Part shown: positions 361-58,894 of the stretch, in pieces
Layout: every line of letters begins with the position of its first letter
Numbering within the stretch: the stretch's first letter is position 1
Assembly (NCBI GenBank): GCA_964556545.1
Contig: CAZKWE010000092.1
Coordinates: 9,213 to 73,212, forward strand
Source: an uncultured Campylobacteraceae bacterium
GTDB lineage: Bacteria > Campylobacterota > Campylobacteria > Campylobacterales > JALSKU01
Length of the DNA stretch: 64,000 nucleotides
Reading direction: 5' to 3'
Translations under genes and position numbers: made by a program
The notes under the pieces: generated by a model
The model's database searches: none
Seen by the model: only the letters and a program-made list of their open reading frames with translations
Told to the model about the DNA's origin: nothing

Positions 361-2433
361 ATGTACAATAAAATATTAAAAGAAAAGTTCGGCTTTGACA
401 AATTTAAGCCTATACAGGAAAAAGCCGTAAAAAGAATACTTAAAAAAGAGGATTTGTTGGTTATTTTGCCGACAGGCAGTGGAAAATCACTCATATATCA
501 ACTTCCTTCTCTCTTAATGAGCGGCACTACCATAGTCATCTCTCCTCTTATAGCTCTTATGCAAGACCAAGTTGCATCACTGCAGTTAAACGGTATAAAT
601 GCAAAAATGATAAATTCATCCAATACGGTAAAACAAAACAATCAAACTCTGCAGGAATTATTGAATGCAGATATAAAACTTTTATATGTCGCACCGGAAA
701 GATTTGTCAATGAAAATTTTTTACAATTGCTTCAGAAAATAGATATAAATTTTTTTGTAATAGATGAAGCTCACTGTGTCAGCGAATGGGGACATGAATT
801 TAGAGATGATTATAGAAAATTAAACCTTATAAAAAACAGATTTGCCAATATTCCCGTTACTGCTTTTACCGCAACTGCAACAAAAGAAGTCCAAAAAGAT
901 ATATTAAAAACTTTACAGATTAAACATACGCTAAGAGCAGAGACTATAAGAGATAATATTCTTATAAGATGCCAAAAAAGAATGGGAAACGGGTATTCTC
1001 AAATTATCTCTTTTTTAAATACTCACAAAGATGAATGTGGTATAATTTACTGTTTTACCAGAAAAGAGACAGAAAAATTATCAATCTTTTTAAATCAAAA
1101 AGGATTTTCGACACTATCTTATCATGCAGGTTTGCCAAACAAAAAAAGAGATGAAATTTTTTATAAATTTAAAAATGAAGAGATAAAAATCATTGTTGCC
1201 ACCATTGCTTTTGGAATGGGTATAGATAAAGACAATATCAGATTTGTTTTGCATACTTCCATGCCAAAAACTTTGGAAAACTACTTTCAGGAGATAGGGC
1301 GGGCGGGAAGAGATTCGTTAAAAAGCGATGCTTTGCTACTTTACTCCAAATCAGACGAGATAAATAAAAGAATTTTTCTTGAAGAATTGGCAGAATCAAA
1401 CTATAAAAAAAATATATATGAAAAATTAAATACAATGTATCGCTACTGTATTACTTCCGACTGCCGTCATCAGTTTATAGCAAAATATTTTGGCGATCAG
1501 ATAGAAAAATGCGAAACAAACTGTGACAACTGCCTTGAAAAGGATACTGAATTTCTTAACATTAAAATACCCGCTCAAAAATTTCTATCGGCAATTTTAA
1601 GAAGCGGTGAGAGATTTGGTGCAAATTACATCATAGATATACTAAAAGGTTCAAAATCAAAAAGAATACTTGAACTTGGACACGATAAACTTTCAGTCTA
1701 TGGCATAGGAAATGAATTTTCAAAAGAGCAATGGGGAAGCATACAGGATAAATTACTTGATATGGAAGCAATTTATCAAGAGAGTGAATATAAAACTTTA
1801 AAAGTTACAAATATCGGCAAAAAAATATTAAAAGATGAACTCACAGTAACAATAAAGAAAAAAGATTTACAAACAGATATAAGTTTTAAAGAGTATAAAC
1901 AAGAGATAAAAAAAGATGAAATATTTGAAAAATTAAGAGAACTTAGAAGTGAATTTGCCAAAAAAGATAAAATACCGGCTTATATGGTTTTTAGTGACAA
2001 AACTCTTTTTGAAATATCCAAAAAACTGCCCAAAGACAAAAAAGAGTTTTTGGAAATTTCTGGAGTCGGACAGACAAAGCTTGAGAGATATGCCAAAGAT
2101 TTTATACAACTGTGCAACAATCTTAAACCAATTGTTAAAAAACCACTGCATAAAACATACCAAGAAACACTTACTCTTATAAACAAAGGGGAGAGTTTTG
2201 ATAAAATTTGCAAAGCAAGAGAATTAAAGCCCGTGACTATATTGACTCATATCAATACTCTTGTTGAAAAAGGATATATAGACAACAAAACAAAACTAAA
2301 ATATACCGAACCGCTAAAAGAGAATTTTCCAAAAGAGATAAAAGAATGGATTGAAAAAGGACTCAAGATAGAAAATTTTGAAAAAATAAGAGAATTTTTA
2401 AGTTTTTACGGCTCTCTTTATGCTCCCAAATAA
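361..2433 (+). CDS. recQ: ATP-dependent DNA helicase RecQ
   Basis: Walker A PTGSGKS, DEAH box VIDEAHCVSEWGHEFR, Cys cluster (C..C...C..C) of the RecQ Zn module, HRDC-like region, extra C-terminal HTH-like tail. Start moved to ATG 361 (MYNKILKEKFGFDKF), which fits RecQ N-termini better than track start 316. Confidence 0.9.
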   Translation: MYNKILKEKFGFDKFKPIQEKAVKRILKKEDLLVILPTGSGKSLIYQLPSLLMSGTTIVISPLIALMQDQVASLQLNGINAKMINSSNTVKQNNQTLQELLNADIKLLYVAPERFVNENFLQLLQKIDINFFVIDEAHCVSEWGHEFRDDYRKLNLIKNRFANIPVTAFTATATKEVQKDILKTLQIKHTLRAETIRDNILIRCQKRMGNGYSQIISFLNTHKDECGIIYCFTRKETEKLSIFLNQKGFSTLSYHAGLPNKKRDEIFYKFKNEEIKIIVATIAFGMGIDKDNIRFVLHTSMPKTLENYFQEIGRAGRDSLKSDALLLYSKSDEINKRIFLEELAESNYKKNIYEKLNTMYRYCITSDCRHQFIAKYFGDQIEKCETNCDNCLEKDTEFLNIKIPAQKFLSAILRSGERFGANYIIDILKGSKSKRILELGHDKLSVYGIGNEFSKEQWGSIQDKLLDMEAIYQESEYKTLKVTNIGKKILKDELTVTIKKKDLQTDISFKEYKQEIKKDEIFEKLRELRSEFAKKDKIPAYMVFSDKTLFEISKKLPKDKKEFLEISGVGQTKLERYAKDFIQLCNNLKPIVKKPLHKTYQETLTLINKGESFDKICKARELKPVTILTHINTLVEKGYIDNKTKLKYTEPLKENFPKEIKEWIEKGLKIENFEKIREFLSFYGSLYAPK

Positions 2434-3119
2434 GCCTCTTTTACCTTTTTGTCATTTATCAATTCGTCTGATTTGCCGCTCATTGTTATTTTTCCGTTTT
2501 CAAGCACATAAGCTCTGTCACTAAAACCAAGTGCAAGATAGGCATTTTGCTCCACTAAAAATATAGTAGTTCCTTTTTCTTTTAAATTTTGCAGCACTTC
2601 AAATATATCCTCTACAATAATCGGAGCCAAACCCATACTCGGCTCATCCAAAAGTAAAAGCTTCGGTCTGCTCATTAAAGCTCTTCCAAGAGAAAGCATT
2701 TGTTGTTGACCGCCTGAGAGTGTTCCTGCGTAATGCTCTTTTTTCTCTCTTAAAACCGGAAAAAGTTCATATATCCACTCTATATCATCTTTGATATCAC
2801 TATCATTTCTGATATATGCTCCCATCAAAAGATTGTCTTCCACACTCAAAATATTAAACAACCCCCTTCCCTCCGGGACTTGGGCAATTCCAAGTTTGAC
2901 TCTTTGTTTTGAATCGCTACTGCTTATATCTTTATCATTAAAATAAATTTTTCCGCTTTGCTCTTTTTGAAGTGCACTTATTACTCTTAAAAGTGTAGTT
3001 TTTCCGGCTCCATTTGCACCAATCAGCGATACTATCTCATTATTTTTTACTTCCAAACTTATATCTATAAGAGTTTTTATCTTGCCGTAACTAAAATTCA
3101 AATTTTCGATTCTAAGCAT
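2418..3119 (-). CDS. livF: branched-chain amino acid ABC transporter ATP-binding protein LivF
   Basis: Walker A GANGAGKTT, signature LSGGQQQ, Walker B LLLLDEPS, LivF-type C-terminus EAYLG. Last gene of the liv operon. Confidence 0.85.
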   Translation of the reverse strand: MLRIENLNFSYGKIKTLIDISLEVKNNEIVSLIGANGAGKTTLLRVISALQKEQSGKIYFNDKDISSSDSKQRVKLGIAQVPEGRGLFNILSVEDNLLMGAYIRNDSDIKDDIEWIYELFPVLREKKEHYAGTLSGGQQQMLSLGRALMSRPKLLLLDEPSMGLAPIIVEDIFEVLQNLKEKGTTIFLVEQNAYLALGFSDRAYVLENGKITMSGKSDELINDKKVKEAYLGA

Positions 3120-3951
3120 AATTAGACCCCAAATATGCTTTTATAACTTCTTTATTGTTTGCTATTTCTTCGGGTTTGCCGTAAGCTAATTTTTTACCGA
3201 AATTCATAACTGTTATCTCATCTGAAATTTTCATTACCATCTTCATATCATGCTCAACCAATATCACACTAAGCCCCTCATTTGCCACTTCTTTAATGAT
3301 TTGTGAAATTTCATCGGTTTCTTTGGGATTTAGACCTGCAACCGGTTCATCAAAAAGTATCAATTTCGGTTTTGTTGCCAAAGCTCTTATAATTTCAAGT
3401 TTTTTAAGCACTCCGTAAGAGAGTGAGTCAGCCTGTTTGTATGCTATCTTTTCAAGATTAAACATATTTAAGTATTTCATCGCCTCATATTCAAACTTTT
3501 TCTCATCCTCTTTTATTCTTTTTGTTCTAAGACAGGTTTGAATAATATTTTTACTCATAAACTTATCAAATCCAAGCATAATATTTTCAAGGGCACTCAT
3601 ACTTCCGCAAATCTCAAGATGCTGAAAAGTCCTGCATATCCCTTTATGGACAAGTTTATGCATAGGAATATTTGTAATATTCTCTCTATGCCCGTGTATC
3701 ATATCTTTGATATCATCTTCTTCAACACACTTTATATCATCATCTTTTCTTAAGTATATTTCTCCCGATGTCACACTGTATATCCCCGTTATCATATTGA
3801 TAAGGGTTGTTTTTCCGGCTCCGTTTGGGCCTATTATAGAATGAACGGTACCTCTTTTAACATTAAAACTAAGCTCGTCAACGGCTTTTAAGCCACCAAA
3901 ATTTTTGCAAAGTTCTCTAACTATGAGCATTCGTTTTCCCCAATTTATCAA
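3112..3951 (-). CDS. livG: branched-chain amino acid ABC transporter ATP-binding protein LivG
   Basis: Walker A GPNGAGKTT, Walker B ILFDEP, C-terminal KAYLG. A more likely start is ATG at 3930 (MLIVRELCKNFGG). Confidence 0.85.
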   Translation of the reverse strand: MINWGKRMLIVRELCKNFGGLKAVDELSFNVKRGTVHSIIGPNGAGKTTLINMITGIYSVTSGEIYLRKDDDIKCVEEDDIKDMIHGHRENITNIPMHKLVHKGICRTFQHLEICGSMSALENIMLGFDKFMSKNIIQTCLRTKRIKEDEKKFEYEAMKYLNMFNLEKIAYKQADSLSYGVLKKLEIIRALATKPKLILFDEPVAGLNPKETDEISQIIKEVANEGLSVILVEHDMKMVMKISDEITVMNFGKKLAYGKPEEIANNKEVIKAYLGSNYA

Positions 3952-24058: not shown

Positions 24059-24549
24059 AATCCAAGCAATTTTTTTCTTATTTTAGGGTTTGTAAGATTT
24101 TCTCCTCTTAACATTCTCAATCTCATTTCATCAAAAGGTATCAACTTCTTTTTTGTACTGTTTTTTTCATATGCTCCGAAACCATAATGCATCGGAGTAC
24201 TGTCGGTCATTGTATAATGAGCTTTTTTCGCATCTATCCATTTATGGGTATCATCACTATATGTCCAAAGTTTTACATCTTTCGGGTCATATTTGTTTTT
24301 ATGAAGCCAAAGTATCATACAACCAGGATCATCAAACACAAAAGCTCTGCCATCTTTTAGTATAACTTCACTTGAATGATCCATTTTTTCCACTTCCATG
24401 CCACATTGCGGATCCATTGTAACTCCAAGCTTTACCGGTACCGGTTTTCCGTCTTTGCTTTTTAGAGTTGCCACTTCTCTTTTTTCACAGCCGCTAAACA
24501 ATAACAAAATAAATATCGCAAATATAATACTTTTTTTCATCACAGCCAT
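24055..24549 (-). CDS. NosL-family lipoprotein, paralog of the nosL at 29792-30274
   Basis: 164 aa, lipobox LFSGC. Shares DPQCGM / FVFDDPGCMILWL / KWIDAKKAHYT / PMHYGFGAY with nosL (CQRCDM / YLFDDIGCAVLWM / KWIDARKALYT / PMAYGIAAF). Confidence 0.65.
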   Translation of the reverse strand: MAVMKKSIIFAIFILLLFSGCEKREVATLKSKDGKPVPVKLGVTMDPQCGMEVEKMDHSSEVILKDGRAFVFDDPGCMILWLHKNKYDPKDVKLWTYSDDTHKWIDAKKAHYTMTDSTPMHYGFGAYEKNSTKKKLIPFDEMRLRMLRGENLTNPKIRKKLLGF

Positions 24550-25502
24550 ACTCCATTTTTTAAATGATAAATTACGGGATAAGCAGATACTATAATAACA
24601 TAAACAGTATCAAAAATCAAAGAAATCTTTCCAAAATTACTCTTTTTTATCCCGGCAAGCAAGATAATATATCGTGCAATTGCACTGAAAGTTCCTATAA
24701 AAAGAGTGGTATATAAAACATATCCTATATAGTGATAATCACTTTGCAGCATACAAAACGGGCAATGATGAGTAGGCAGTTCATATATGTAAGTTCCGAA
24801 AAACGATATAAGTGAAATGATGGAAGTTGCTACAAATAAAATATTTGCCAAAGCATAATATACGGAATTTTTCAGTCTGTAAGCAAAAAGAATAAGTATA
24901 AAATTTATATAAAAAAGCGAAACCAAAAGAGTATTTGGCAAAGAGAGTATAGAAGCGATAGTTGATTTTCCCGCAGCTGAAAATACGGTTCCGCAGCAAC
25001 TGACTATTCTTGCCGGATCGAGTGAAAAAAATTCCATAACCTCCAGCACAATCTCACTCATCAAAAAAATATATATTATAACAAAAAAGATAAATTTTAT
25101 CTTTGTATAAGGCATTTTTTCATTTTCCAAATCAACCTTGTTTAGCACCAGCCAGGAACTAAACAGATATAAATTTATAATTTTTATTATCATGGCATAA
25201 AAACCATATGTTGTAGAATTTACTACACCGACTGCACACATAGCTCCCGGTATATAAACCGATAACTTATCCTGTACATATATAAAGTACAAAAAAAGAG
25301 GCAATTTTATAAAAAGTATATATTTTATGATTGTCGCTACAAGATAACTCTGTTTTTCAAGTCTGTACTGTGTAGTTGTTGTTTTTGTGATATCCCATTT
25401 TAAAATTATCTTTATACTTAAAAAAAATGCAATTGTTCCGAAAAAAGCAAAAATACCGTCAAGTATCAAAATCACAAGAACATCAGGTGTCAACAAATTC
25501 AC
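24540..25502 (-). CDS. polytopic membrane protein with conserved-looking Cys/His motifs, unknown function
   Basis: 320 aa, about 8 hydrophobic segments. Motifs GAMCAVG, VSCCG, THHCPFCM. 4-nt overlap with the upstream ABC ATPase gene, 10-nt overlap with the downstream NosL paralog. Confidence 0.6.
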   Translation of the reverse strand: MNLLTPDVLVILILDGIFAFFGTIAFFLSIKIILKWDITKTTTTQYRLEKQSYLVATIIKYILFIKLPLFLYFIYVQDKLSVYIPGAMCAVGVVNSTTYGFYAMIIKIINLYLFSSWLVLNKVDLENEKMPYTKIKFIFFVIIYIFLMSEIVLEVMEFFSLDPARIVSCCGTVFSAAGKSTIASILSLPNTLLVSLFYINFILILFAYRLKNSVYYALANILFVATSIISLISFFGTYIYELPTHHCPFCMLQSDYHYIGYVLYTTLFIGTFSAIARYIILLAGIKKSNFGKISLIFDTVYVIIVSAYPVIYHLKNGVWL

Positions 25503-26167
25503 TTCATTACGCCTTTTACTATTTCTATTTCCCTGTCAGTAATATCAAGATTAAAAAATATAGGATCATGTGTAGCAATAACAATTGTTTTTTTATCATT
25601 TTTTAACTCTTTTAAAAATGATAAAAAATCTTGTGAAAGTTTTGCATCAAGATTGGCTGTGGGCTCATCTGCAAGTATAATCTTCGGATCATTTACCAAA
25701 GCTCTGGCAATTGCCACTCTTTGCTGTTCTCCCCCTGATAGATTTTTAGCCAAATCATTTTTTTTGTGATAAATTGAAAATTTTTTCATACTAAGCTCTG
25801 CTTTGGTATCAATTTCCTCTTTTGTAAATCCTGAAGGAATAAGAGGCAAGATAACATTTTCATATACACTAAGTGTTGGTATAAGATTGAATTTTTGAAA
25901 AATAAAACCTATATTTTCCCGTCTATACATAGAAGCAAAATTATCAGGAAGCTTTGCTATCTTTTTGCCATCAACTTCCACATCACCGCTGGTTGGCTTT
26001 AAAAGTGCGGCCAAAATTGACAAAAGTGTACTTTTCCCGCTGCCGCTTGGCCCTTTTAAAAGAACCAATTCTTTTGATTTTACCTGAAATGTTATATTTT
26101 GCAAAGCTACCGTTTCATTTGGCTTGCCTTGATTGAAAATTTTATAAATTTTATCAACTTTTATCAT
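25499..26167 (-). CDS. ABC transporter ATP-binding protein (MacB/LolD-like)
   Basis: 222 aa. Walker A GPSGSGKST, signature LSGGEQQR, Walker B ILADEPT, and the FIFQ.FNL motif typical of the MacB/LolD class. Confidence 0.85.
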   Translation of the reverse strand: MIKVDKIYKIFNQGKPNETVALQNITFQVKSKELVLLKGPSGSGKSTLLSILAALLKPTSGDVEVDGKKIAKLPDNFASMYRRENIGFIFQKFNLIPTLSVYENVILPLIPSGFTKEEIDTKAELSMKKFSIYHKKNDLAKNLSGGEQQRVAIARALVNDPKIILADEPTANLDAKLSQDFLSFLKELKNDKKTIVIATHDPIFFNLDITDREIEIVKGVMK

Positions 26168-27354
26168 CTTATTACCTCGTCAGCTTCCAATGTCGCCGCA
26201 AACCATGAAGGTATGATAGTTGCCGCTATATAAAGTGGCACTGTGGCAAAAAATATAAGCGTTACAGTTCCGAAGTCGAAACTAAAAGGAAGTTCAAAAG
26301 GAGGCTTGAGTATAGAATAACCGGTAAATATATCTCTTAAAACAGGAGCATTTAAAAAATATACATAAAACATACCAAAAGTCAATGCACTGAAAAATGC
26401 AACAAATGAAATGATAAAAGCTTCATAAAATTTTTGCAAAAGTATATCTCCTATCTTCCATCCAACTGCTTTTTGAACACCTATTTCTCGTTTTTCATCA
26501 CTGCTTAATCCGCTTGTTTTATCATATATAATGATAAAAAATGTAAAAAGAGCTATGATAAAAAGTGCCAAAAAAACTCCACTCTTATAATCAAATATAT
26601 TGTTATATGAAATTCTAAGATCATTTTTTGTAATAACTCTGAAATTCGGATACATCAATCGTATCTTTGTGGCTATCTCATTAACTTCTTTTGGATTTGG
26701 TACTCTTATGGTTATATCGGTAGCTTTATCTTCACTCATTCCAAATATTTCTCTTGCATTCTCATTGCTCAACAAAATGATATCATTTGATTCTAAAAGA
26801 GTGCTTCCTTTAAAAACTCCTGCTAAATATATCTTTTTAAAATCTCCGTTTGGTTTTATAAAATTAAAGTATTTATCATAATAATTTTTTTCAAGTATCT
26901 TTTTTACACCCTCGCCTACTATCATGGTATTTGGTTTATCAAAAATCGTTTTATCATATTTGTCAACAACATTTTGTATGCTTTTTTTATAGTTTGTATC
27001 AAATCTGCTAACACCTACTACCGAAAAATTGGCACCTGCATTTTTAAAGTAGTAGTATCCCCAAACTCTTGGAGAAACCTGTGAAACACCCTCAATAGTT
27101 GATAACTTTTCAACAACATCCAAACTAATATCCTGCTCTCTTCCGGCACTAAGTTTTTGTATGGTAATATCAGGTAAAGAATCAACCGTATAGGATAACT
27201 CTTTTTTTATGGAGTTGGATATAAAAAAGATAGATGATAGTAAAAATATCAGTATAAAAAAAATGATAAATATAAATATATTTTTACTTCCTCTTCTTTT
27301 TATAGCACTTAGTGCATATTCAAAAAGCAAAAGATTAAATAATTTCATTTGCAT
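26164..27354 (-). CDS. ABC transporter permease, FtsX/MacB type
   Basis: 396 aa. TM1, a roughly 230-aa periplasmic domain, then 3 C-terminal TMs with KREIGVQKAVGW (FtsX-domain motif). Confidence 0.8.
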   Translation of the reverse strand: MQMKLFNLLLFEYALSAIKRRGSKNIFIFIIFFILIFLLSSIFFISNSIKKELSYTVDSLPDITIQKLSAGREQDISLDVVEKLSTIEGVSQVSPRVWGYYYFKNAGANFSVVGVSRFDTNYKKSIQNVVDKYDKTIFDKPNTMIVGEGVKKILEKNYYDKYFNFIKPNGDFKKIYLAGVFKGSTLLESNDIILLSNENAREIFGMSEDKATDITIRVPNPKEVNEIATKIRLMYPNFRVITKNDLRISYNNIFDYKSGVFLALFIIALFTFFIIIYDKTSGLSSDEKREIGVQKAVGWKIGDILLQKFYEAFIISFVAFFSALTFGMFYVYFLNAPVLRDIFTGYSILKPPFELPFSFDFGTVTLIFFATVPLYIAATIIPSWFAATLEADEVIR

Positions 27355-27650
27355 ATAACCTTTGATGGGGTTTTTAAAAGTATTGTCGAGGGAGCATAAA
27401 CATAGGTTGTTACAAAGTAGCTAACTCCTTCGGGGTCTTCGCTAAATATGGAAAACAGATCGCTCAAACTTCTATGCCTTATGTATTTGGCTTCAGTAGA
27501 TATAGACAAATCAGGAAGTCCGATATATTTAACAAATATCTGTTTTTGAGATATGTTTTTACTCTTAAGTGTTAAAAACAAAACTTCAAATGTAAAAAAA
27601 AGAGCAATTGCTGTAAAAATAAGAGAAAAAATCTTTAAATTTTTACTCAT
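27345..27650 (-). CDS. small membrane-anchored periplasmic protein, unknown function
   Basis: 101 aa, single N-terminal TM. ATGA overlap with the upstream NosL-like gene and 10-nt overlap with the FtsX permease gene. Confidence 0.5.
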   Translation of the reverse strand: MSKNLKIFSLIFTAIALFFTFEVLFLTLKSKNISQKQIFVKYIGLPDLSISTEAKYIRHRSLSDLFSIFSEDPEGVSYFVTTYVYAPSTILLKTPSKVICK

Positions 27651-28363
27651 TTTTTTTGCTCATCAAGCGACCAGACAAGATCATCATTTAACTCATCAAA
27701 TCTTTTTATAAATTTTCCGAAATGATCTTTTTTAAAATTTTCAGCCTCTTTGAGTGTTTTAAAAGGTATAAGCTCATTCCCCATAGGTCCTAAAACATTA
27801 CTCCAAAACACATAATATGCTTTTTTGGCATTTATACCCTTTTGAGTATAATAATCAGTTACAATTATTTTGGTAATACTTTTTCTAAATTTTTTTATAT
27901 CATATTTGCCATAGTCATCCGGATTGAAGTAAAATTTCATCATATCCTTTACACCGTCAAAACTAAAATGATGAATTTTGCCATCTTTTTTAAAATAAAT
28001 CTGAGCCGCCCATCTTGGATACTTGTAAACAAGCATTCCGCAAACCGGACATTTTTCTCCTTTGTGGACAACTACTTTACCAAATTCTTTCGGTTTACCT
28101 GCTCTTTTGATATCCCAAAGATACAATGATACCGCCAACAACTGTTTTTTGGACAACCTTTTGCAAAGCTTTTTCTCTTTTATAGCTTTTTTGAGCATCT
28201 TGATATCTTCATAGTTTTTAACATTTATTGGTTTGCAAACTTTTTGATATATCTTTTTACCCATAGGATAATAAATAATCTTTTTTTGTGCATCTGTTAT
28301 AGCAAAAAGAGAGCCAAACAATATCAATAATACAAGAATCTTTTTCATATTTTTCCCCAACAA
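27647..28363 (-). CDS. NosL-family periplasmic protein with N-terminal extension
   Basis: 238 aa, signal peptide. Canonical NosL metal motif GEKCPVCGM, then YVFWSNVLGPMGNELIPF. About 80 aa of extra N-terminal sequence. Confidence 0.7.
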   Translation of the reverse strand: MLGKNMKKILVLLILFGSLFAITDAQKKIIYYPMGKKIYQKVCKPINVKNYEDIKMLKKAIKEKKLCKRLSKKQLLAVSLYLWDIKRAGKPKEFGKVVVHKGEKCPVCGMLVYKYPRWAAQIYFKKDGKIHHFSFDGVKDMMKFYFNPDDYGKYDIKKFRKSITKIIVTDYYTQKGINAKKAYYVFWSNVLGPMGNELIPFKTLKEAENFKKDHFGKFIKRFDELNDDLVWSLDEQKK

Positions 28364-28436
28364 TATAATATATCAATATAGCAAAAAAGTGTTAAGTGTT
28401 TGTTAAAAAATGTTTATGATATATTTAAAAAATCAA

Positions 28437-28913
28437 TTACAGCATATCAAGATACTTAATCAATCCTTTTGAAATTCTTGAAAAAGGTAAAACCTTTGTT
28501 CCTCCGTATTTTACTTCAAACATTTTAAGAGTTGTTCTATCGCTAAAAGGTACCAAATCATCACCCTTCGGGCCTATTAGTCTGCTACCAAAAACATAAA
28601 GAGCTTTTTTTGCATCTATTACTTTACCTGTTATATAATCCTGCACGACCATTTTTTTTATGTCTTTGGTAGTTTTTGCACCGTATTCGGTATAATACCA
28701 CGGTCTATAGTAAAAATCCATCATACTTTTAACAGAACTAAAGTATGCCTTTTTACCATTTTTCAACTCAATCATACAGACTAAATTTCCATATTTGTTT
28801 ACATTCCAATTAAACAATGGATCAAGTGCATTTTTGGGAACTTTCAATTCTCCTGCACTAAGTCCTGAAACCAAAAATCCAAAAAACAAAATGCTTAATA
28901 TAACTTTTTTCAT
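28437..28913 (-). CDS. NosL-like periplasmic protein lacking the CxxCGM motif
   Basis: 158 aa, signal peptide. Aligns by eye with the 238-aa paralog (SVKSMMDFYYRP vs GVKDMMKFYFNP; YVFGSRLIGPKGDDLVPF vs YVFWSNVLGPMGNELIPF), but has LVCM in place of CPVCGM and PKG in place of PMG. Confidence 0.6.
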   Translation of the reverse strand: MKKVILSILFFGFLVSGLSAGELKVPKNALDPLFNWNVNKYGNLVCMIELKNGKKAYFSSVKSMMDFYYRPWYYTEYGAKTTKDIKKMVVQDYITGKVIDAKKALYVFGSRLIGPKGDDLVPFSDRTTLKMFEVKYGGTKVLPFSRISKGLIKYLDML

Positions 28914-28961
28914 AAAATTCCCTCCAAATTTTTTATTTGTTTTTAAATATGGATACCCATA

Positions 28962-29789
28962 TTACAATATATCTTTTTTCTTAAATGAAATAAATCCAAA
29001 AAGAGCAAACAAAGCACCTATTATAACCGGATATGTTACTGCATAGGCTATAAAAGCCGTATGTCCGAAATTATCAAGCAAATAGTAAGCTACCGGGCCT
29101 ATAACGGTAAGTTCGGGGTCAAATAGGCTTATAGCTCCTACTCTAAATACTTCCATCGGATTTAAAAGCGAGATAGATATGATAAGATTATCCGAAATCC
29201 TGTCTTGAAGCATCAATCCTATAAGAGCTACATCTATAAAAGCCAGCATTACTATCCACACCACAAATGATGCCCCTATGGCCACATCATGTGATTTTAC
29301 AATAGATGATATAAAAAAAGCAATTCCGAGAAATGAAAATGAAAGTCCGAACAGTAAAGCCGAATACAGCATTAACATATTGTAAGGCAATGCTCCGCCT
29401 TTAAAAATTCCCCAAACAACCCCAAGAAATAAAGCGATAACAACAGGTAAAAAAACCGTTAAAAATCTGCCGAGCATTTTACCCCAATAATAATCTTTTA
29501 ACGATATGGGAAATGACAACATATACTCAAGTATATTACTCTCCTTATCACCTGCAATGGATTTGACGGTAGTAGTAAGTATAAAGATAGGAAGTATGAT
29601 TATAGTTACTTGCATATATATAAGAAGTATCCTGCTAAGTCCGCTAAATCCCATAACAACAGCATTTGTAATACCTGTTATAAAAAATAAAGCCATCAGT
29701 CCGCCAAAAACTATACTATATATAAAAAACCATTTTGATTTTATAGACTCTTTTATATCAAGCTTTGCTACTAACAATAAATTTTTCAC
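28962..29789 (-). CDS. nosY: nitrous oxide reductase maturation ABC-2 type permease NosY
   Basis: 275 aa, 6 TM, ABC-2 permease topology. Located in the nos cluster after nosF and nosL. Confidence 0.75.
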   Translation of the reverse strand: MKNLLLVAKLDIKESIKSKWFFIYSIVFGGLMALFFITGITNAVVMGFSGLSRILLIYMQVTIIILPIFILTTTVKSIAGDKESNILEYMLSFPISLKDYYWGKMLGRFLTVFLPVVIALFLGVVWGIFKGGALPYNMLMLYSALLFGLSFSFLGIAFFISSIVKSHDVAIGASFVVWIVMLAFIDVALIGLMLQDRISDNLIISISLLNPMEVFRVGAISLFDPELTVIGPVAYYLLDNFGHTAFIAYAVTYPVIIGALFALFGFISFKKKDIL

Positions 29790-29791
29790 CG

Positions 29792-30274
29792 TTATTTTCC
29801 CTTTTGTATTTTTTGCTGATTGAAATCTTCAACTTTATGTATAATCTTTTCAGCCTCTTTTAAAGTCAAAGGCTTTTCTCCTTTTGGCAATGTCTTTTTT
29901 GTAAAAGCGGCTATACCATAGGCCATAGGAGTTATCATATCATCTGTATATAAGGCTTTTCTTGCATCTATCCATTTTCCGGTTTTAGCATCTGTTATCC
30001 AGATAACAGCTTTATCCTTCCATGGTATTTTATTTTCATCCATCCACAAAACCGCACAACCTATATCATCAAAAAGATAATGCTTGCCTGTTTTGGGATT
30101 TACCACTTGTACTGCATATTTTCTCTCGCTGATAGCCATGTCACATCTTTGGCATATATCTCTATCCCAATGCATTTTTTGCGGTTTTAAATCTATCTTT
30201 TTATCGCACCCCGTAAGACCACCCATAAACAATAAAGACAAAAATACAAATATATACTTCTTCATTTGCATCAT
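29792..30274 (-). CDS. nosL: nitrous oxide reductase accessory lipoprotein NosL
   Basis: 160 aa, lipobox LTGC, CQRCDM motif. Position is directly after nosF, with a 1-nt gap. Confidence 0.7.
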   Translation of the reverse strand: MMQMKKYIFVFLSLLFMGGLTGCDKKIDLKPQKMHWDRDICQRCDMAISERKYAVQVVNPKTGKHYLFDDIGCAVLWMDENKIPWKDKAVIWITDAKTGKWIDARKALYTDDMITPMAYGIAAFTKKTLPKGEKPLTLKEAEKIIHKVEDFNQQKIQKGK

Positions 30275-35865: not shown

Positions 35866-35879
35866 TTGATATTCATCAA
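35866..35879 (-). promoter_or_regulatory. CRP/FNR-family box TTGATATTCATCAA upstream of nosB
   Basis: Perfect TTGAT-N4-ATCAA. A -10-like TAGAAT (35843-35838, minus strand) lies 29.5 bp from the box centre, which is class II geometry. Confidence 0.65.
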
Positions 35880-35913
35880 GTCATAAAAGTGTATATTTAA
35901 GTAAATTATAAGA

Positions 35914-38639: not shown

Positions 38640-38653
38640 TTGATTATCATCAA
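38640..38653 (-). promoter_or_regulatory. CRP/FNR-family box TTGATTATCATCAA upstream of nosZ
   Basis: Perfect TTGAT-N4-ATCAA. A consensus TATAAT (38617-38612, minus strand) begins 29.5 bp from the box centre. Predicted transcription start is about 38605, giving a 5' UTR of about 56 nt. Confidence 0.7.
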
Positions 38654-38844
38654 GTCATAAATGTGTTATTTTAAGTTTTATATTTATGCTATTTTAAGCT
38701 TTTCTATAAAAATACCTAAATACCGGGATCCGTTTAAAAGAAATTATTTATTGTGATATTTAAAATAATTACAAAAAAATTGTAAATTTTATACATTTAT
38801 GCTAAAATACGCCAAATTCTTCATATAACCTTAAGGAAACAGTT

Positions 38845-56880: not shown

Positions 56881-57621
56881 ATGATGAAAAAATTGGTTGC
56901 TTATATAACTTGTGCATATCCTGATATAAATTTTACAGAAGATTTGATACTTTCACTCAAAGACAATGGTGTGGATTTTGTAGAGCTTGGGGTTCCTTTT
57001 TCCGACCCTGTTGCTGATGGACCCGTTATAGAAGAAGCAAATTTAAAAGCACTTCAAAACGGCTTTAAGATGAAAGATTTGTTTGAAGTTTCCAAAAGAG
57101 TCGCCAAAGAAATTGATACCTTGTGGATGGGATATTTTAACCCTTTTTATAAAAACGGAGTTGAATTTCACATACAAAAAGCAAAAGAATTCGGTATAAA
57201 AGGTTTTATCGTACCTGATTTGCCCTATGAAGAAGCAATAAACTACAAAGACAAGTTTGAAAAAAGCAATGTTTCACTCATAGATTTTGTTGCACCTACG
57301 GATTCTCAGGCAAGGATAAATCAAATAGTCAAAAATGCAAAAACTTTTATATATCTTGTTGCGTATGCAGGCATAACCGGTTCGGGAAAAAATGAAGATT
57401 TGACTTTGATTGTCAACAACATAAGAGAAGCAACAAATACGGATATATTTTTGGGTTTTGGCGTCAATGAAAAAACTGCAAAGAAAAAGTCAGAAAATGT
57501 TGACGGAGTTATAGTCGGAAGTGCCTTTGTAAAAGTACTTCTTGATGAAAGCTTAACAAATATACAAAAAATTGATAATATATCTCAACTTGCATCTTGT
57601 ATAAAAAACGAGATTAATTAG
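56881..57621 (+). CDS. trpA: tryptophan synthase alpha chain
   Basis: 246 aa. ELGVPFSDPVADGPVI motif, GF.VPDLP, C-terminal GVIVGSA. Confidence 0.85.
   Translation: MMKKLVAYITCAYPDINFTEDLILSLKDNGVDFVELGVPFSDPVADGPVIEEANLKALQNGFKMKDLFEVSKRVAKEIDTLWMGYFNPFYKNGVEFHIQKAKEFGIKGFIVPDLPYEEAINYKDKFEKSNVSLIDFVAPTDSQARINQIVKNAKTFIYLVAYAGITGSGKNEDLTLIVNNIREATNTDIFLGFGVNEKTAKKKSENVDGVIVGSAFVKVLLDESLTNIQKIDNISQLASCIKNEIN
57539..57620 (+). repeat. 82-bp direct repeat, copy 1 (3' end of trpA)
   Basis: ttcttgatgaaagcttAacaaatatacaaaaaattgataatatatctcaacttgcatcttgtataaaaaacgagattaatta. Identical to 58445-58526 except A/G at 57555 vs 58461. Confidence 0.95.
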
Positions 57622-57762
57622 AAGAGTGGGGGTCAGGGCTTTACTTTTAACTTTTTTCTTGATACAACGCAAAAAAATGATACTATGGTGAACAAATTGG
57701 TTGGATGAGCAGAAAACAAACAGAAAAACAGAATTTAATAGCCTTGACAAAGGTTATCAAAT

Positions 57763-58110
57763 ATGATAACATACCACATGAATTGGATAATTGAGTTTTT
57801 TGATGAGAGTGTAGAGGCAAAAACCCTTGCCCTGCCTCCAAAGATTTTGGCAATAATGCTACACATTTTTGAATTGATAGAAATGGCAGGAGCTCAGCTT
57901 GGAGAACCCTACACAAAACCGCTTAATGATGGTTTGTTTGAAGTACGAGCAAAAGCCAAAGAGGATATTGGTAAAAGTATCTACTGTTATCAAAAAGGGC
58001 AAAAGATCATCATCTTACATTCATTTGTAAAAAAGGACCAAAAAATACCAAAAAAAGATTTACAAATCGCTCTTAAACGCAAAAAGGAGATAGACAATGC
58101 AAACAACTAA
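57763..58110 (+). CDS. higB: type II toxin, HigB / phage Gp49-like (RelE/ParE superfamily)
   Basis: About 110 aa. Pattern ...LFEVRAKAKEDIGKSIYCYQKGQKIIILHSFVKKDQKIPKKDLQIALKR is typical of Gp49-like toxins. 14-nt overlap with the downstream HTH gene. Start may be ATG 57778. Confidence 0.7.
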   Translation: MITYHMNWIIEFFDESVEAKTLALPPKILAIMLHIFELIEMAGAQLGEPYTKPLNDGLFEVRAKAKEDIGKSIYCYQKGQKIIILHSFVKKDQKIPKKDLQIALKRKKEIDNANN

Positions 58111-58390
58111 AAGACTTACATTTGCCAACTTCAAGAAAAAAGCATTGCAAAACGAAGCGGTTGAAAAAGAATATAATGCACTCAAACCTCTATTTGCCAT
58201 TAAGAAACAGTTGGTTGTGGCACGCCTTGATAAAGGGCTTACACAAGATGAAATTGCAAAGAAAATCGGAACTTCCAAGTCAAATATATCAAGGCTTGAG
58301 AGCTTAAATAACAGCTATATGCCCAATCTCGCAACACTTATGAAATATGCTGAAGCACTTGGTATGAGGCTTGATATAGGATTAAGATAG
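58097..58390 (+). CDS. higA: XRE-family HTH antitoxin (HigA-like)
   Basis: 97 aa. HTH motif GLTQDEIAKKIGTSKSNISRLES. Toxin-first gene order as in HigBA. Confidence 0.7.
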   Translation: MQTTKRLTFANFKKKALQNEAVEKEYNALKPLFAIKKQLVVARLDKGLTQDEIAKKIGTSKSNISRLESLNNSYMPNLATLMKYAEALGMRLDIGLR

Positions 58391-58444
58391 AAGTGGAGGT
58401 CAGTTGCCACCTTAATTTTTTATGATCCCCTAATTTTTCAATTT

Positions 58445-58526
58445 TTCTTGATGAAAGCTTGACAAATATACAAAAAATTGATAATATATCTCAACTTGCA
58501 TCTTGTATAAAAAACGAGATTAATTA
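58445..58526 (+). repeat. 82-bp direct repeat, copy 2 (immediately upstream of ssrA; carries likely ssrA promoter)
   Basis: Same 82 bp as 57539-57620. Contains TTGACA (58459-58464), a 17-nt spacer, then TGaTAATAT (extended -10, 58479-58487). Ends at the first base before mature tmRNA. Confidence 0.9.
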
Positions 58527-58894
58527 GGGAGTGACTTGGCTTCGACAGGAACAGACAAGCTTGAGGTTCATGCCGGTTTGAACAATACCGCAAAAATGTT
58601 CCGTTAAAAATAAACGCAAACAATACAAATTACAGACCTGCGCTCGCTGTAGCGTAATAGCCTAACGGCTCGGTCAGTCATTTGGGTTTCCTGCTATCGG
58701 AAGCCTATTTGGCTTAACACTTTTGATAGCTTGAGATAAAAGGTGTCCTACTTTTATCTGACATTTTGGACTGAGAGTTTTCTATCTTGCAAATGGGTAG
58801 AAAACTTGAAACTTTTTCATTTGCACCAAGCATGTAACAAGACCTCTTGTGAGTCTGTTTTTGGACAGGGGTTCGATCCCCCTCACTTCCACCA
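58527..58894 (+). ncRNA. ssrA: tmRNA (SsrA)
   Basis: 5' GGGAGTGACTTGGCTTCGACAGG and 3' GGACAGGGGTTCGATCCCCCTCACTTCCACCA (tRNA-Ala-like acceptor/T-arm with CCA). Internal tag ORF GCA AAC AAT ACA AAT TAC AGA CCT GCG CTC GCT GTA GCG TAA TAG = ANNTNYRPALAVA**. Confidence 0.93.

Follow-up and report, generated by a model that had tools for sequence, protein, structure and literature searches.

A higBA cassette with an integrase remnant lies between trpA and ssrA, flanked by a long duplication of the trpA tail

We examined a 64,000-nt stretch of DNA (contig CAZKWE010000092.1, positions 9,213 to 73,212; hereafter the window) from an uncultured Campylobacteraceae bacterium, in which a toxin-antitoxin (TA) gene pair of the HigBA type separates trpA from ssrA, the gene for transfer-messenger RNA (tmRNA; Table 1). 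The 3' end of trpA is present twice, with an offset of 906 nt, and the two copies are identical at 82 of 83 nt, the sole mismatch being A57555 in the left copy versus G58461 in the right. The length of 83 nt counts the G of the trpA TAG stop codon, which corresponds to tmRNA base 1, on which the right copy terminates; the initial annotation had given 82 bp with one difference, and this stands once the shared G is added. The pair is the only long, close-range, high-identity repeat across the 64 kb. We found no third copy within the window, and none of 100 shuffles gave a match. Between the copies lies an insert of 823 nt (57622–58444). The initial annotation described this interval as holding only TA genes; two such genes with a 14-nt overlap are indeed there, higB followed by higA in the same orientation, but the interval also contains a 39-nt segment, an integrase stub, and a 54-nt spacer. 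With a G+C content of 0.352, against 0.336 for the window, the insert gives no compositional hint of a distant donor.

The arrangement is base-for-base identical, mismatch included, in two independent public assemblies of the same species (99.9% for L081 and 99.5% for L082; compared loci are given as L numbers). The contig names of one assembly (k141_509424) imply k = 141, and the 83-nt repeat, being shorter, was therefore spanned. Given the length of the repeat relative to k and the agreement of three assemblies, mis-assembly is not credible.

Table 1. Features of the trpA-ssrA locus, in window coordinates.
Feature	Coordinates	Strand	Evidence or remark
trpA (tryptophan synthase alpha), intact	56881–57621	+	ORF; Pfam Trp_syntA 3.9e-64; TIGR00262 1.3e-60
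Left copy of the 83-nt direct repeat (duplicated target), closing with the trpA TAG stop	57539–57621	+	Identical in L081, L082
Redundant ssrA promoter copy within trpA, -35 TTAACA	57553–57581	+	9/12 matches
39 nt of neither trpA, ssrA nor integrase origin; left arm of imperfect inner repeat	57622–57660	+	
Integrase pseudogene stub, last ~34 codons, P4-type tyrosine integrase, in-frame stop	57661–57762	+	
higBA promoter, TTGACA-17-TG-n-TAACAT	57744–57772	+	Invariant across all genomic contexts
higB-like toxin gene (Gp49, RelE-ParE superfamily)	57763–58110	+	PF05973 3e-23
higA-like XRE/HTH antitoxin gene	58097–58390	+	HTH_3 6.7e-12
Right spacer, 54 nt; first ~36 nt form right arm of imperfect inner repeat	58391–58444	+	
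Right copy of the 83-nt direct repeat, ancestral sequence kept	58445–58527	+	
Functional-looking ssrA promoter, TTGACA-17-TG-n-TAATAT (near-consensus extended -10)	58459–58487	+	10/12 matches
ssrA (tmRNA), intact, tag ANNTNYRPALAVA	58527–58894	+	ARAGORN; Rfam RF00023 149.6 bits

We scanned for TrpA in one genome per species and obtained 80 loci, all from hydrothermal-vent Campylobacterales, among which the adjacency of trpA to ssrA is kept. Among the closest relatives whose contig includes both genes, four (L001, L002, L005, L008; other species, TrpA 72–84% identical) have the trpA stop codon 0 or -1 nt from the start of the mature tmRNA, and the trpA tail is present in a single copy in each. 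The gap is 5–54 nt in most of the remaining relatives. Wider gaps occur in more distant lineages; we considered these as further insertions and rejected them, since they hold ordinary genes (for a coiled-coil protein, a DHH-type protein, lgt, and LysE) and no duplication. Both flanks of the insert are syntenic with the four empty-site relatives, with Hpt-trpA on one side and genes for a lipoprotein, a histidine kinase, and a response regulator on the other, indicating that the 906 nt are the sole difference from those relatives. Because the trpA stop codon touches ssrA and the tail is single-copy in these relatives, we conclude that the arrangement in the window is an insertion. The initial annotation had proposed an insertion at this junction and predicted a single-copy empty site, which is what the four relatives show; the alternative that it had named, the same duplication in all relatives, is not what they carry.

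The right copy of the repeat contains a predicted ssrA promoter whose -10 element ends 39 nt ahead of the mature tmRNA 5' end, and in relatives with no gap between the genes the -10 ends 39–40 nt from the mature tmRNA end. Of 52 relatives, 44 have TTGACA, a 17-nt spacer and an A/T-rich -10 in the 100 nt that precede ssrA, regardless of what that DNA encodes, and in all six single-copy relatives that we aligned TTGACA lies within trpA codons. This conservation indicates that the final ~70 nt of trpA also serve as the promoter of ssrA. A short tmRNA leader would be trimmed by RNase P. In the ancestral state, the trpA stop codon very probably touched the first base of ssrA, with the ssrA promoter within the last ~70 nt of trpA. 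A plain insertion at such a junction would truncate trpA or deprive ssrA of its promoter, such that only a duplicating insertion would be viable. Duplication of at least 69 nt would spare both genes; the observed duplication spans -82 to +1. Thus, trpA is whole and ssrA retains a promoter because 83 nt holding both the trpA C-terminus and the ssrA promoter were duplicated. The mismatch in the left copy, which is common to the three assemblies, is a synonymous Leu TTG>TTA change at 57555 that converts the -35 hexamer from TTGACA to TTAACA. All six single-copy relatives have TTGACA, indicating that A57555 is the derived base. We estimate the chance of the left-copy substitution falling in a promoter hexamer at ~0.07; the change may damp read-through into higB, which a single substitution cannot show. 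Across species, the TTGACA hexamer is maintained at synonymous trpA positions.

The toxin matches PF05973 with 82.1 bits (cutoff 23.9) and chain A (HigB) of PDB 6AF3 at 7.7e-6; the antitoxin matches HTH_3 with 45.7 bits and chain B (HigA) of PDB 6AF3 at 9.6e-4. These matches bear out the earlier assignment to a HigB/Gp49 toxin and an XRE antitoxin. As in HigBA type II systems, the toxin gene precedes the antitoxin gene, opposite to the order in most TA systems, the genes overlap, and the domain families correspond. The promoter holds a palindrome that is a candidate operator. The likeness to the solved HigBA complex (PDB 6AF3/6AF4) is distant (E = 8e-6 and 1e-3), and the window pair is a putative TA system. 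Toxin homologues are widespread, with 197 in vent metagenomes at E < 1e-10 and thousands on plasmids, where they are annotated as RelE/ParE toxin with an HTH regulator. Across genomic contexts, dN/dS is 0.05–0.13 for higB and 0.07–0.10 for higA. By these measures the cargo is an ordinary HigBA-type module under purifying selection.

The DNA common to all contexts spans exactly from the -35 element of the higBA promoter to the higA stop codon. A perfect 7+7-nt palindrome, GTTATCA-AATA-TGATAAC (57753–57770), lies between the -35 and -10 elements, is invariant in all contexts, and is probably the HigA operator. The annotated higB start, ATG 57763, falls inside this palindrome and upstream of the predicted -10 element (57767–57772). 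Many homologues are annotated as a 110-aa form, which agrees with a start at ATG 57778, ~6 nt past the -10. Translation may in fact begin at ATG 57778, in which case the higB mRNA may be leaderless. In loci where higBA is linked to an integrase gene, the integrase stop codon overlaps the region of the higB start and palindrome (57753–57780 in the window).

The DNA immediately upstream of higB identifies the source of the cassette. Loci with six of the closest relatives of the toxin (87–92% identical; L098, L099, L101, L103, L104, L116) are homologous to the window at the DNA level from 57664 onward, and the DNA upstream of higB is 86% identical from 57664 to integrase-linked loci, in which it is coding. 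In L099 (1200–3628), the order is tmRNA (1200–1573), a 409-aa protein (1775–3004), higB (92% identical), and higA. The 409-aa protein has Arm-DNA-bind_3, Phage_int_M, and Phage_integrase domains, as expected of a P4-type tyrosine integrase, and integrase domains are also found in L098. An nhmmer profile built from seven integrase 3' ends matches the window at 57661–57765 (E = 9.8e-21), and a tblastn search gives E = 2.5e-9, the window reading QRKKMILW*TNWLDEQK, with an in-frame stop, against QRKKMMQWWADWLDEQK in the integrase. We conclude from these matches that higBA in the window is fused to what is left of an integrase gene, its final ~34 codons. The profile search ruled out a stub that extends as far as the trpA stop codon. 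There is no intact integrase gene within the insert, only the ~34-codon stub, and no integrase or transposase gene call within 6 kb on either side. The initial annotation, which reported no mobility gene, overlooked the stub.

The integrase is full length in L098, L099, L104, and L119. L023 has the order trpA-ssrA-integrase remnant-higBA (1162–3250), the remnant consisting of ~100 frameshifted codons directly after ssrA; L083, L097, L102, and L107 have stubs shorter than the ~34 codons in the window; and L084 has no integrase left, with higBA 208 nt past ssrA (2517–3717). These loci form a decay series, from full length through ~100 and ~34 codons to none, over which the TA pair persists. More distant integrases are likewise located 3' of ssrA in L063 and L064. 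Together, the integrase stub and the ssrA-integrase-higBA order in relatives indicate that the cassette derives from islands at the ssrA 3' end in this clade. The initial annotation had raised the possibility that the insert is the remnant of a larger island, and the stub, together with the intact arrangement in L099, supports it. In this clade, integration on the 3' side of ssrA is frequent, with P4-type integrases and the same higBA. Several contigs (L002, L008, L014) stop precisely where the tmRNA gene ends, a pattern that assemblies breaking at variable islands would produce. We also considered a phage origin for the integrase-higBA element and rejected it, the relatives in IMG/VR being no more than 42% identical.

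The repeat itself does not behave as an attachment site. Only one base of ssrA falls within it, whereas islands with related integrases occupy the ssrA 3' end (L099, L023, L063, L064). A sister cassette (toxin 85% identical; L090–L092) is inserted between the convergent genes recR and aroE, where it is flanked by an unrelated 60-nt direct repeat made up of 55 nt from the recR 3' end and 5 further nt, the copies being 911 nt apart. The window and recR/aroE inserts share only the core TA module, their spacers being unrelated. Three RecR relatives that we considered as empty sites were rejected because they have a variable region instead; the fourth provided a control. In this same-species empty allele (L183, L184; RecR 99% identical), recR is followed directly by aroE, without a TA pair and with a single copy of the tail. 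Both recR-tail copies of the filled allele share two single-nucleotide polymorphisms relative to the empty allele, as expected from duplication in situ at recR. At this site, duplication of ~3 nt would satisfy selection; that 60 nt are duplicated indicates that long duplication is a property of the process and not of selection alone. The unrelated repeat at the sister cassette also argues that the 83-nt repeat is not a site-specific attachment site.

The recR region is itself variable. The empty allele has an extra 13 nt (AGGTGCCTTTTAG) between the recR stop codon and the end of aroE (L183 3480–3640), absent from the filled allele (L090/L091 5725–6695) and bounded by a TTTAG microrepeat. In L177–L182, the DNA downstream of recR holds a carbonic anhydrase gene, or a gene for a 1168-aa protein, or a gene for a 448-aa protein with a PBP-family gene. 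PIN and PemK toxin genes lie directly upstream of the 4HBT-recR pair in L177, and a type III-like methylase/helicase pair is found at the recR region in L091 and L183. The region looks like a local hotspot for defence and addiction genes.

We screened 31 distinct cassette contexts for flanking direct repeats, using 300-nt flanks and 200 dinucleotide shuffles for each. A repeat exceeding every shuffle was found in 5–6 of the 31 contexts, versus ~0.15 expected by chance. The repeats are 83 nt (window), 60 nt (recR/aroE), 104 nt and imperfect (L113), 16 nt (L120), 14 nt (L117), and 12 nt (L106) in length, and those of different cassette copies are unrelated in sequence. The L113 repeat (187–290 and 1213–1316; 92% identical, in a GC-rich host) is a candidate only, being internal to a gene and not abutting the insert. 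The TA module of L113 has a DUF1311-like gene on one side and a 104-nt fragment of that gene on the other, and the locus may represent homology-assisted capture rather than a clean target duplication. The repeats in L120 (1277–1292 and 2000–2015) and L117 (124–137 and 829–842) are perfect and close around the TA module. A G-rich motif (AGTGGGGTCAG-like) recurs beside the cassette in several unrelated hosts (L120 948–975, L117, L113 476–490); we considered it as a cassette-specific recombination site, but with a strict definition of the motif its enrichment is not significant, and it may mark such a site or an old target, or recur by chance.

Two other copies of the cassette have no flanking repeats. 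One is next to a JetD (Wadjet) gene (L094/L095 6001–8149) and another next to a nucleotidyltransferase gene of the MNT type (L096 6001–6917), both in neighbourhoods of defence or addiction genes. Distant homologues of the toxin (42–59% identical) from marine and human-gut metagenomes lie amid multi-copy repeats of 22–93 nt spaced 0.5–2 kb apart (L152/L157 2694–4517, L167/L174, L168/L170), which recall cassette arrays. Elsewhere in the window, four diverged copies (67–74%) of a 46-nt segment are spaced 0.8–3.6 kb apart at 24211–29990, probably in paralogous genes, and a 37-nt repeat with 84% identity has copies 2.8 kb apart (35866–35902 and 38640–38676).

The left junction of the insert falls exactly at the trpA stop codon, and the right junction 83 nt upstream of ssrA. 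An imperfect inner repeat (57622–57663 and 58391–58426), nested inside the 83-nt repeat, directly brackets the unit of stub and higBA: the last 11 nt of trpA plus the 39-nt spacer resemble the end of higA plus the first ~36 nt beyond it (z = 5.65, p ~ 3e-4). The left arm of the inner repeat overlaps the end of trpA (GATTAA-TTAG versus GATTAAGATAG), and in an alternative register the right arm enters the outer repeat by 7–8 nt (TTTTTCTTGAT). A sequence in L120 (948–975), ~400 nt upstream of the cassette there, matches the 39-nt spacer at 24 of 26 nt by eye, with a BLAST core of 19/20. The left breakpoints of homology vary among loci, from 57664 to 57744, the right breakpoint is fixed at the higA stop codon, and the right spacer is not common to other TA contexts. 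These footprints would be consistent with illegitimate joining at microhomologies, the donor apparently already bearing older flanks. Several other readings of the spacers were rejected. A third, degenerate copy of the trpA tail in the left spacer is not significant (p ~ 0.05), nor are the spacers as decayed tmRNA fragments in either orientation (p = 0.2–0.96). The likeness of the left spacer to the trpA 5' end (p ~ 0.001) is explained by the integrase stub common to other loci. Nor do the spacers look like terminators or attC-like hairpins, since shuffled sequences fold equally well (z = 0.29 for the right spacer and -0.02 for the other). An inner repeat in the recR/aroE case is not significant (p = 0.28), the right spacer there being too short.

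The first report of insertions with long target duplication (ILTD), from Helicobacter pylori, concerned restriction-modification (RM) genes (Nobusato et al., Gene 2000, as cited in PMC2853133). RM systems of every type have since been seen in such insertions, for the most part in naturally competent bacteria, among them Helicobacter, Campylobacter, Neisseria, and Haemophilus (Furuta, Abe and Kobayashi, NAR 2010; PMC2853133). In the 2010 survey, an insertion counted as ILTD if it measured less than 20 kb, lacked a mobility gene, and was flanked by a repeat of more than 30 bp that occurs only once in a comparison genome; the survey did not establish a mechanism, and suggested double-strand breakage by the RM cargo as a common cause (PMC2853133). 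At the window locus, the flanking repeat is 83 nt long and 82/83 identical; the uninterrupted site is single-copy in the four relatives of other species, with a same-species empty-site control for the sister case only (L183/L184 versus L090–L092); the 823-nt insert has no functional mobility gene, only the 34-codon integrase stub; and the repeat overlaps ssrA by 1 nt only, and so is not an att site derived from a tRNA or tmRNA gene. The cargo is a TA pair instead of R and M genes. PMC2853133 never mentions toxins, and a review (PMC3874152) attributes ILTD to RM systems only. Given this non-RM cargo, we file the locus as a variant of ILTD and not as a member as originally defined: an insertion with long target duplication and higBA cargo is a variant of the class known for RM genes (PMC2853133, PMC3874152). 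Like ILTD of RM genes, which is known from Helicobacter and Campylobacter, of the same phylum as the window organism, it is a small selfish unit without a functional mobility gene, with a long, variable repeat that often overlaps the 3' end of a neighbouring gene; unlike them, its cargo is higBA plus a stub that betrays an island. HigB-family toxins cleave mRNA, not DNA. With an mRNA interferase as cargo, double-strand breaks made by the cargo in the manner of RM systems cannot be the cause here.

Islands in tmRNA or tRNA genes with a P4-type tyrosine integrase are exemplified by CP4-57 of E. coli. Islands at ssrA have been described in Dehalococcoides (PMC3146451) and, as CP4So, in Shewanella (PMC5148205). 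The parent element in relatives of the window is of the same kind: an Arm-DNA-bind_3/Phage_integrase gene comes after ssrA, and the same higBA is part of the cargo (L099, L023). By contrast, the window cassette lies 5' of ssrA, its integrase is reduced to 34 codons, its repeat consists of the trpA tail and promoter, and no other island remains are present; integration in the 3' part of ssrA with a repeat of the ssrA 3' end, as in tmRNA islands, is not found. We also rejected a transposon or insertion sequence, since there is no inverted repeat around 57622–58444, there is no transposase ORF, and the duplication is 83 nt long (12–104 nt among sister copies), as well as an integron gene cassette, since the spacers lack an attC-like fold and the window has no repeat array, R'/R'' core sites being judged by eye. 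Microhomology-mediated duplicative rearrangement includes homology-facilitated illegitimate recombination in transformable bacteria and template switching of the FoSTeS (fork stalling and template switching) or MMBIR (microhomology-mediated break-induced replication) type. Such rearrangements share with the window the combination of an insertion of imported or neighbouring DNA, a target duplication, and short junction microhomologies, which here are footprints in the DNA, of marginal significance.

Considering these data together, the locus is very probably an island-derived higBA insertion with a selected long target duplication that was not made by a site-specific recombinase. The initial annotation had suggested site-specific insertion through the repeat, which in its classical form would mean an attP carrying the 83-bp trpA tail and an interior that decayed to the TA pair. 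Integrative islands usually leave direct repeats around an insert next to a tmRNA gene, the stub attests to an integrase, and att identities can be long, reaching the length of an entire tRNA gene (PMC2853133); nonetheless, we consider this very improbable. Intact relatives of the integrase lie 3' of ssrA, about 200 nt past its end (L099), decayed islands are also 3' (L023, L084), and the repeat has 1 nt of ssrA but none of its 3' sequence. Moreover, the stub points to higB as in the interior of an island and adjoins no att site, sister repeats are unrelated (60 nt at recR/aroE; 12–104 nt elsewhere), and none of the 80 trpA loci has an element at the trpA-ssrA site. An ancient fixed structure or an assembly artefact would fit with the presence of the duplication in all three available assemblies of the species and the lack of a same-species empty allele. 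We regard this as practically negligible, because the closest other species are all single-copy at the junction, the copies differ at 1 of 83 nt versus a TrpA protein difference of 16–28% between those species, and the assemblies agree base for base, with k = 141 spanning the repeat. Overall, the initial annotation recognised the insertion, the TA pair, and the island remnant; its site-specific event does not hold, and the promoter logic of the duplication had gone unseen.

As to where the cassette came from, we tentatively favour a local origin, to which we give slightly less than even weight, a small share being assigned to none of the explanations considered. An eroded integrase-higBA island would formerly have resided at this same ssrA, and a duplicative illegitimate event would have copied the stub and higBA to the other side of ssrA or, equivalently, regenerated a fresh trpA tail and ssrA downstream of the cassette. 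Template switching, unequal sister-chromosome exchange, and recombination with an incoming island-free allele are candidate routes. Short microhomologies would have served for the junctions, the left one at GATTAA..TAG and the right one at TTCTTGAT, and the original island copy would then have been lost. Cells losing higBA would have been killed by the toxin, such that only products retaining the TA pair survived, and purifying selection would have passed only those keeping trpA and the ssrA promoter. We favour this origin because the cassette adjoins the very gene targeted by its parent island, for which we estimate a chance of ~1e-3 at a random junction. It is also possible, if to us somewhat improbable, that an already eroded cassette (39 nt, stub, higBA, and 54 nt) was imported in one step, for example by natural transformation, through the general ILTD process, the proximity to ssrA being a coincidence or reflecting a fragile, highly transcribed site. 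Import explains the old flanks and the sister case more simply than does local origin: the recR/aroE insertion with its 60-nt duplication involves no ssrA, variable-length repeats flank other cassette copies, and the inner repeat around the stub and higBA and the motif in L120 look like old flanks that the cassette brought with it and that may stem from a previous target duplication. The variable left and fixed right homology breakpoints, and the perfect synteny of the flanks with empty-site relatives without an att relic, are also consistent with import. However, a chance landing beside the target of the parent island has an estimated probability of ~0.005 (~2 of ~2000 junctions, ~5 repeat-flanked contexts), and none of about 90 TA loci holds the full 823-nt insert as a possible donor.

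Several observations weigh against a local, island-derived insertion as we propose it. For the species of the window, we found neither an empty allele nor an island-bearing allele, and no locus represents an intermediate with two ssrA copies flanking integrase-higBA. The ssrA 3' end is present in one copy only in the 64 kb, with no attR-like relic of a former island, and we found no att copies within the short island contigs. The segment 57622–57660 is not covered by the integrase profile, and so is not integrase-derived. The significance of the inner repeat falls to p ~ 0.01 when it is computed from the spacers alone, with coding ends excluded, after about a dozen exploratory tests, and the right-junction microhomology is marginal (p ~ 0.05). 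The recurrence of the 39-nt spacer sequence in L120, whose host is unrelated and GC-richer, fits a cassette that arrived eroded with its old flanks, and the recR/aroE case has the same geometry with no ssrA nearby, such that a general one-step process could explain both. Lastly, the natural competence of the window organism is our assumption from its phylum.

It is conceivable, if rather unlikely, that long, variable target duplications are a general footprint of addiction modules, both TA and RM, that move or survive without a recombinase in naturally transformable bacteria, the shared cause being post-segregational killing and not cleavage of DNA by the cargo. If so, killing would remove recombinants that lose the module, leaving duplicative, microhomology-joined products, and the higBA cassette would be a habitual rider of ILTD, its nested inner and outer repeats recording successive moves. 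There are two clean, empty-site-controlled cases and several shorter ones with HigB-type cargo. If these cases hold, the common factor in ILTD would shift from DNA breaks made by the cargo to addiction and selection, or to a host recombination pathway. The interest of the locus lies in its mode of insertion, and it shows how a compact genome constrains insertion through a promoter placed within the last codons of trpA.

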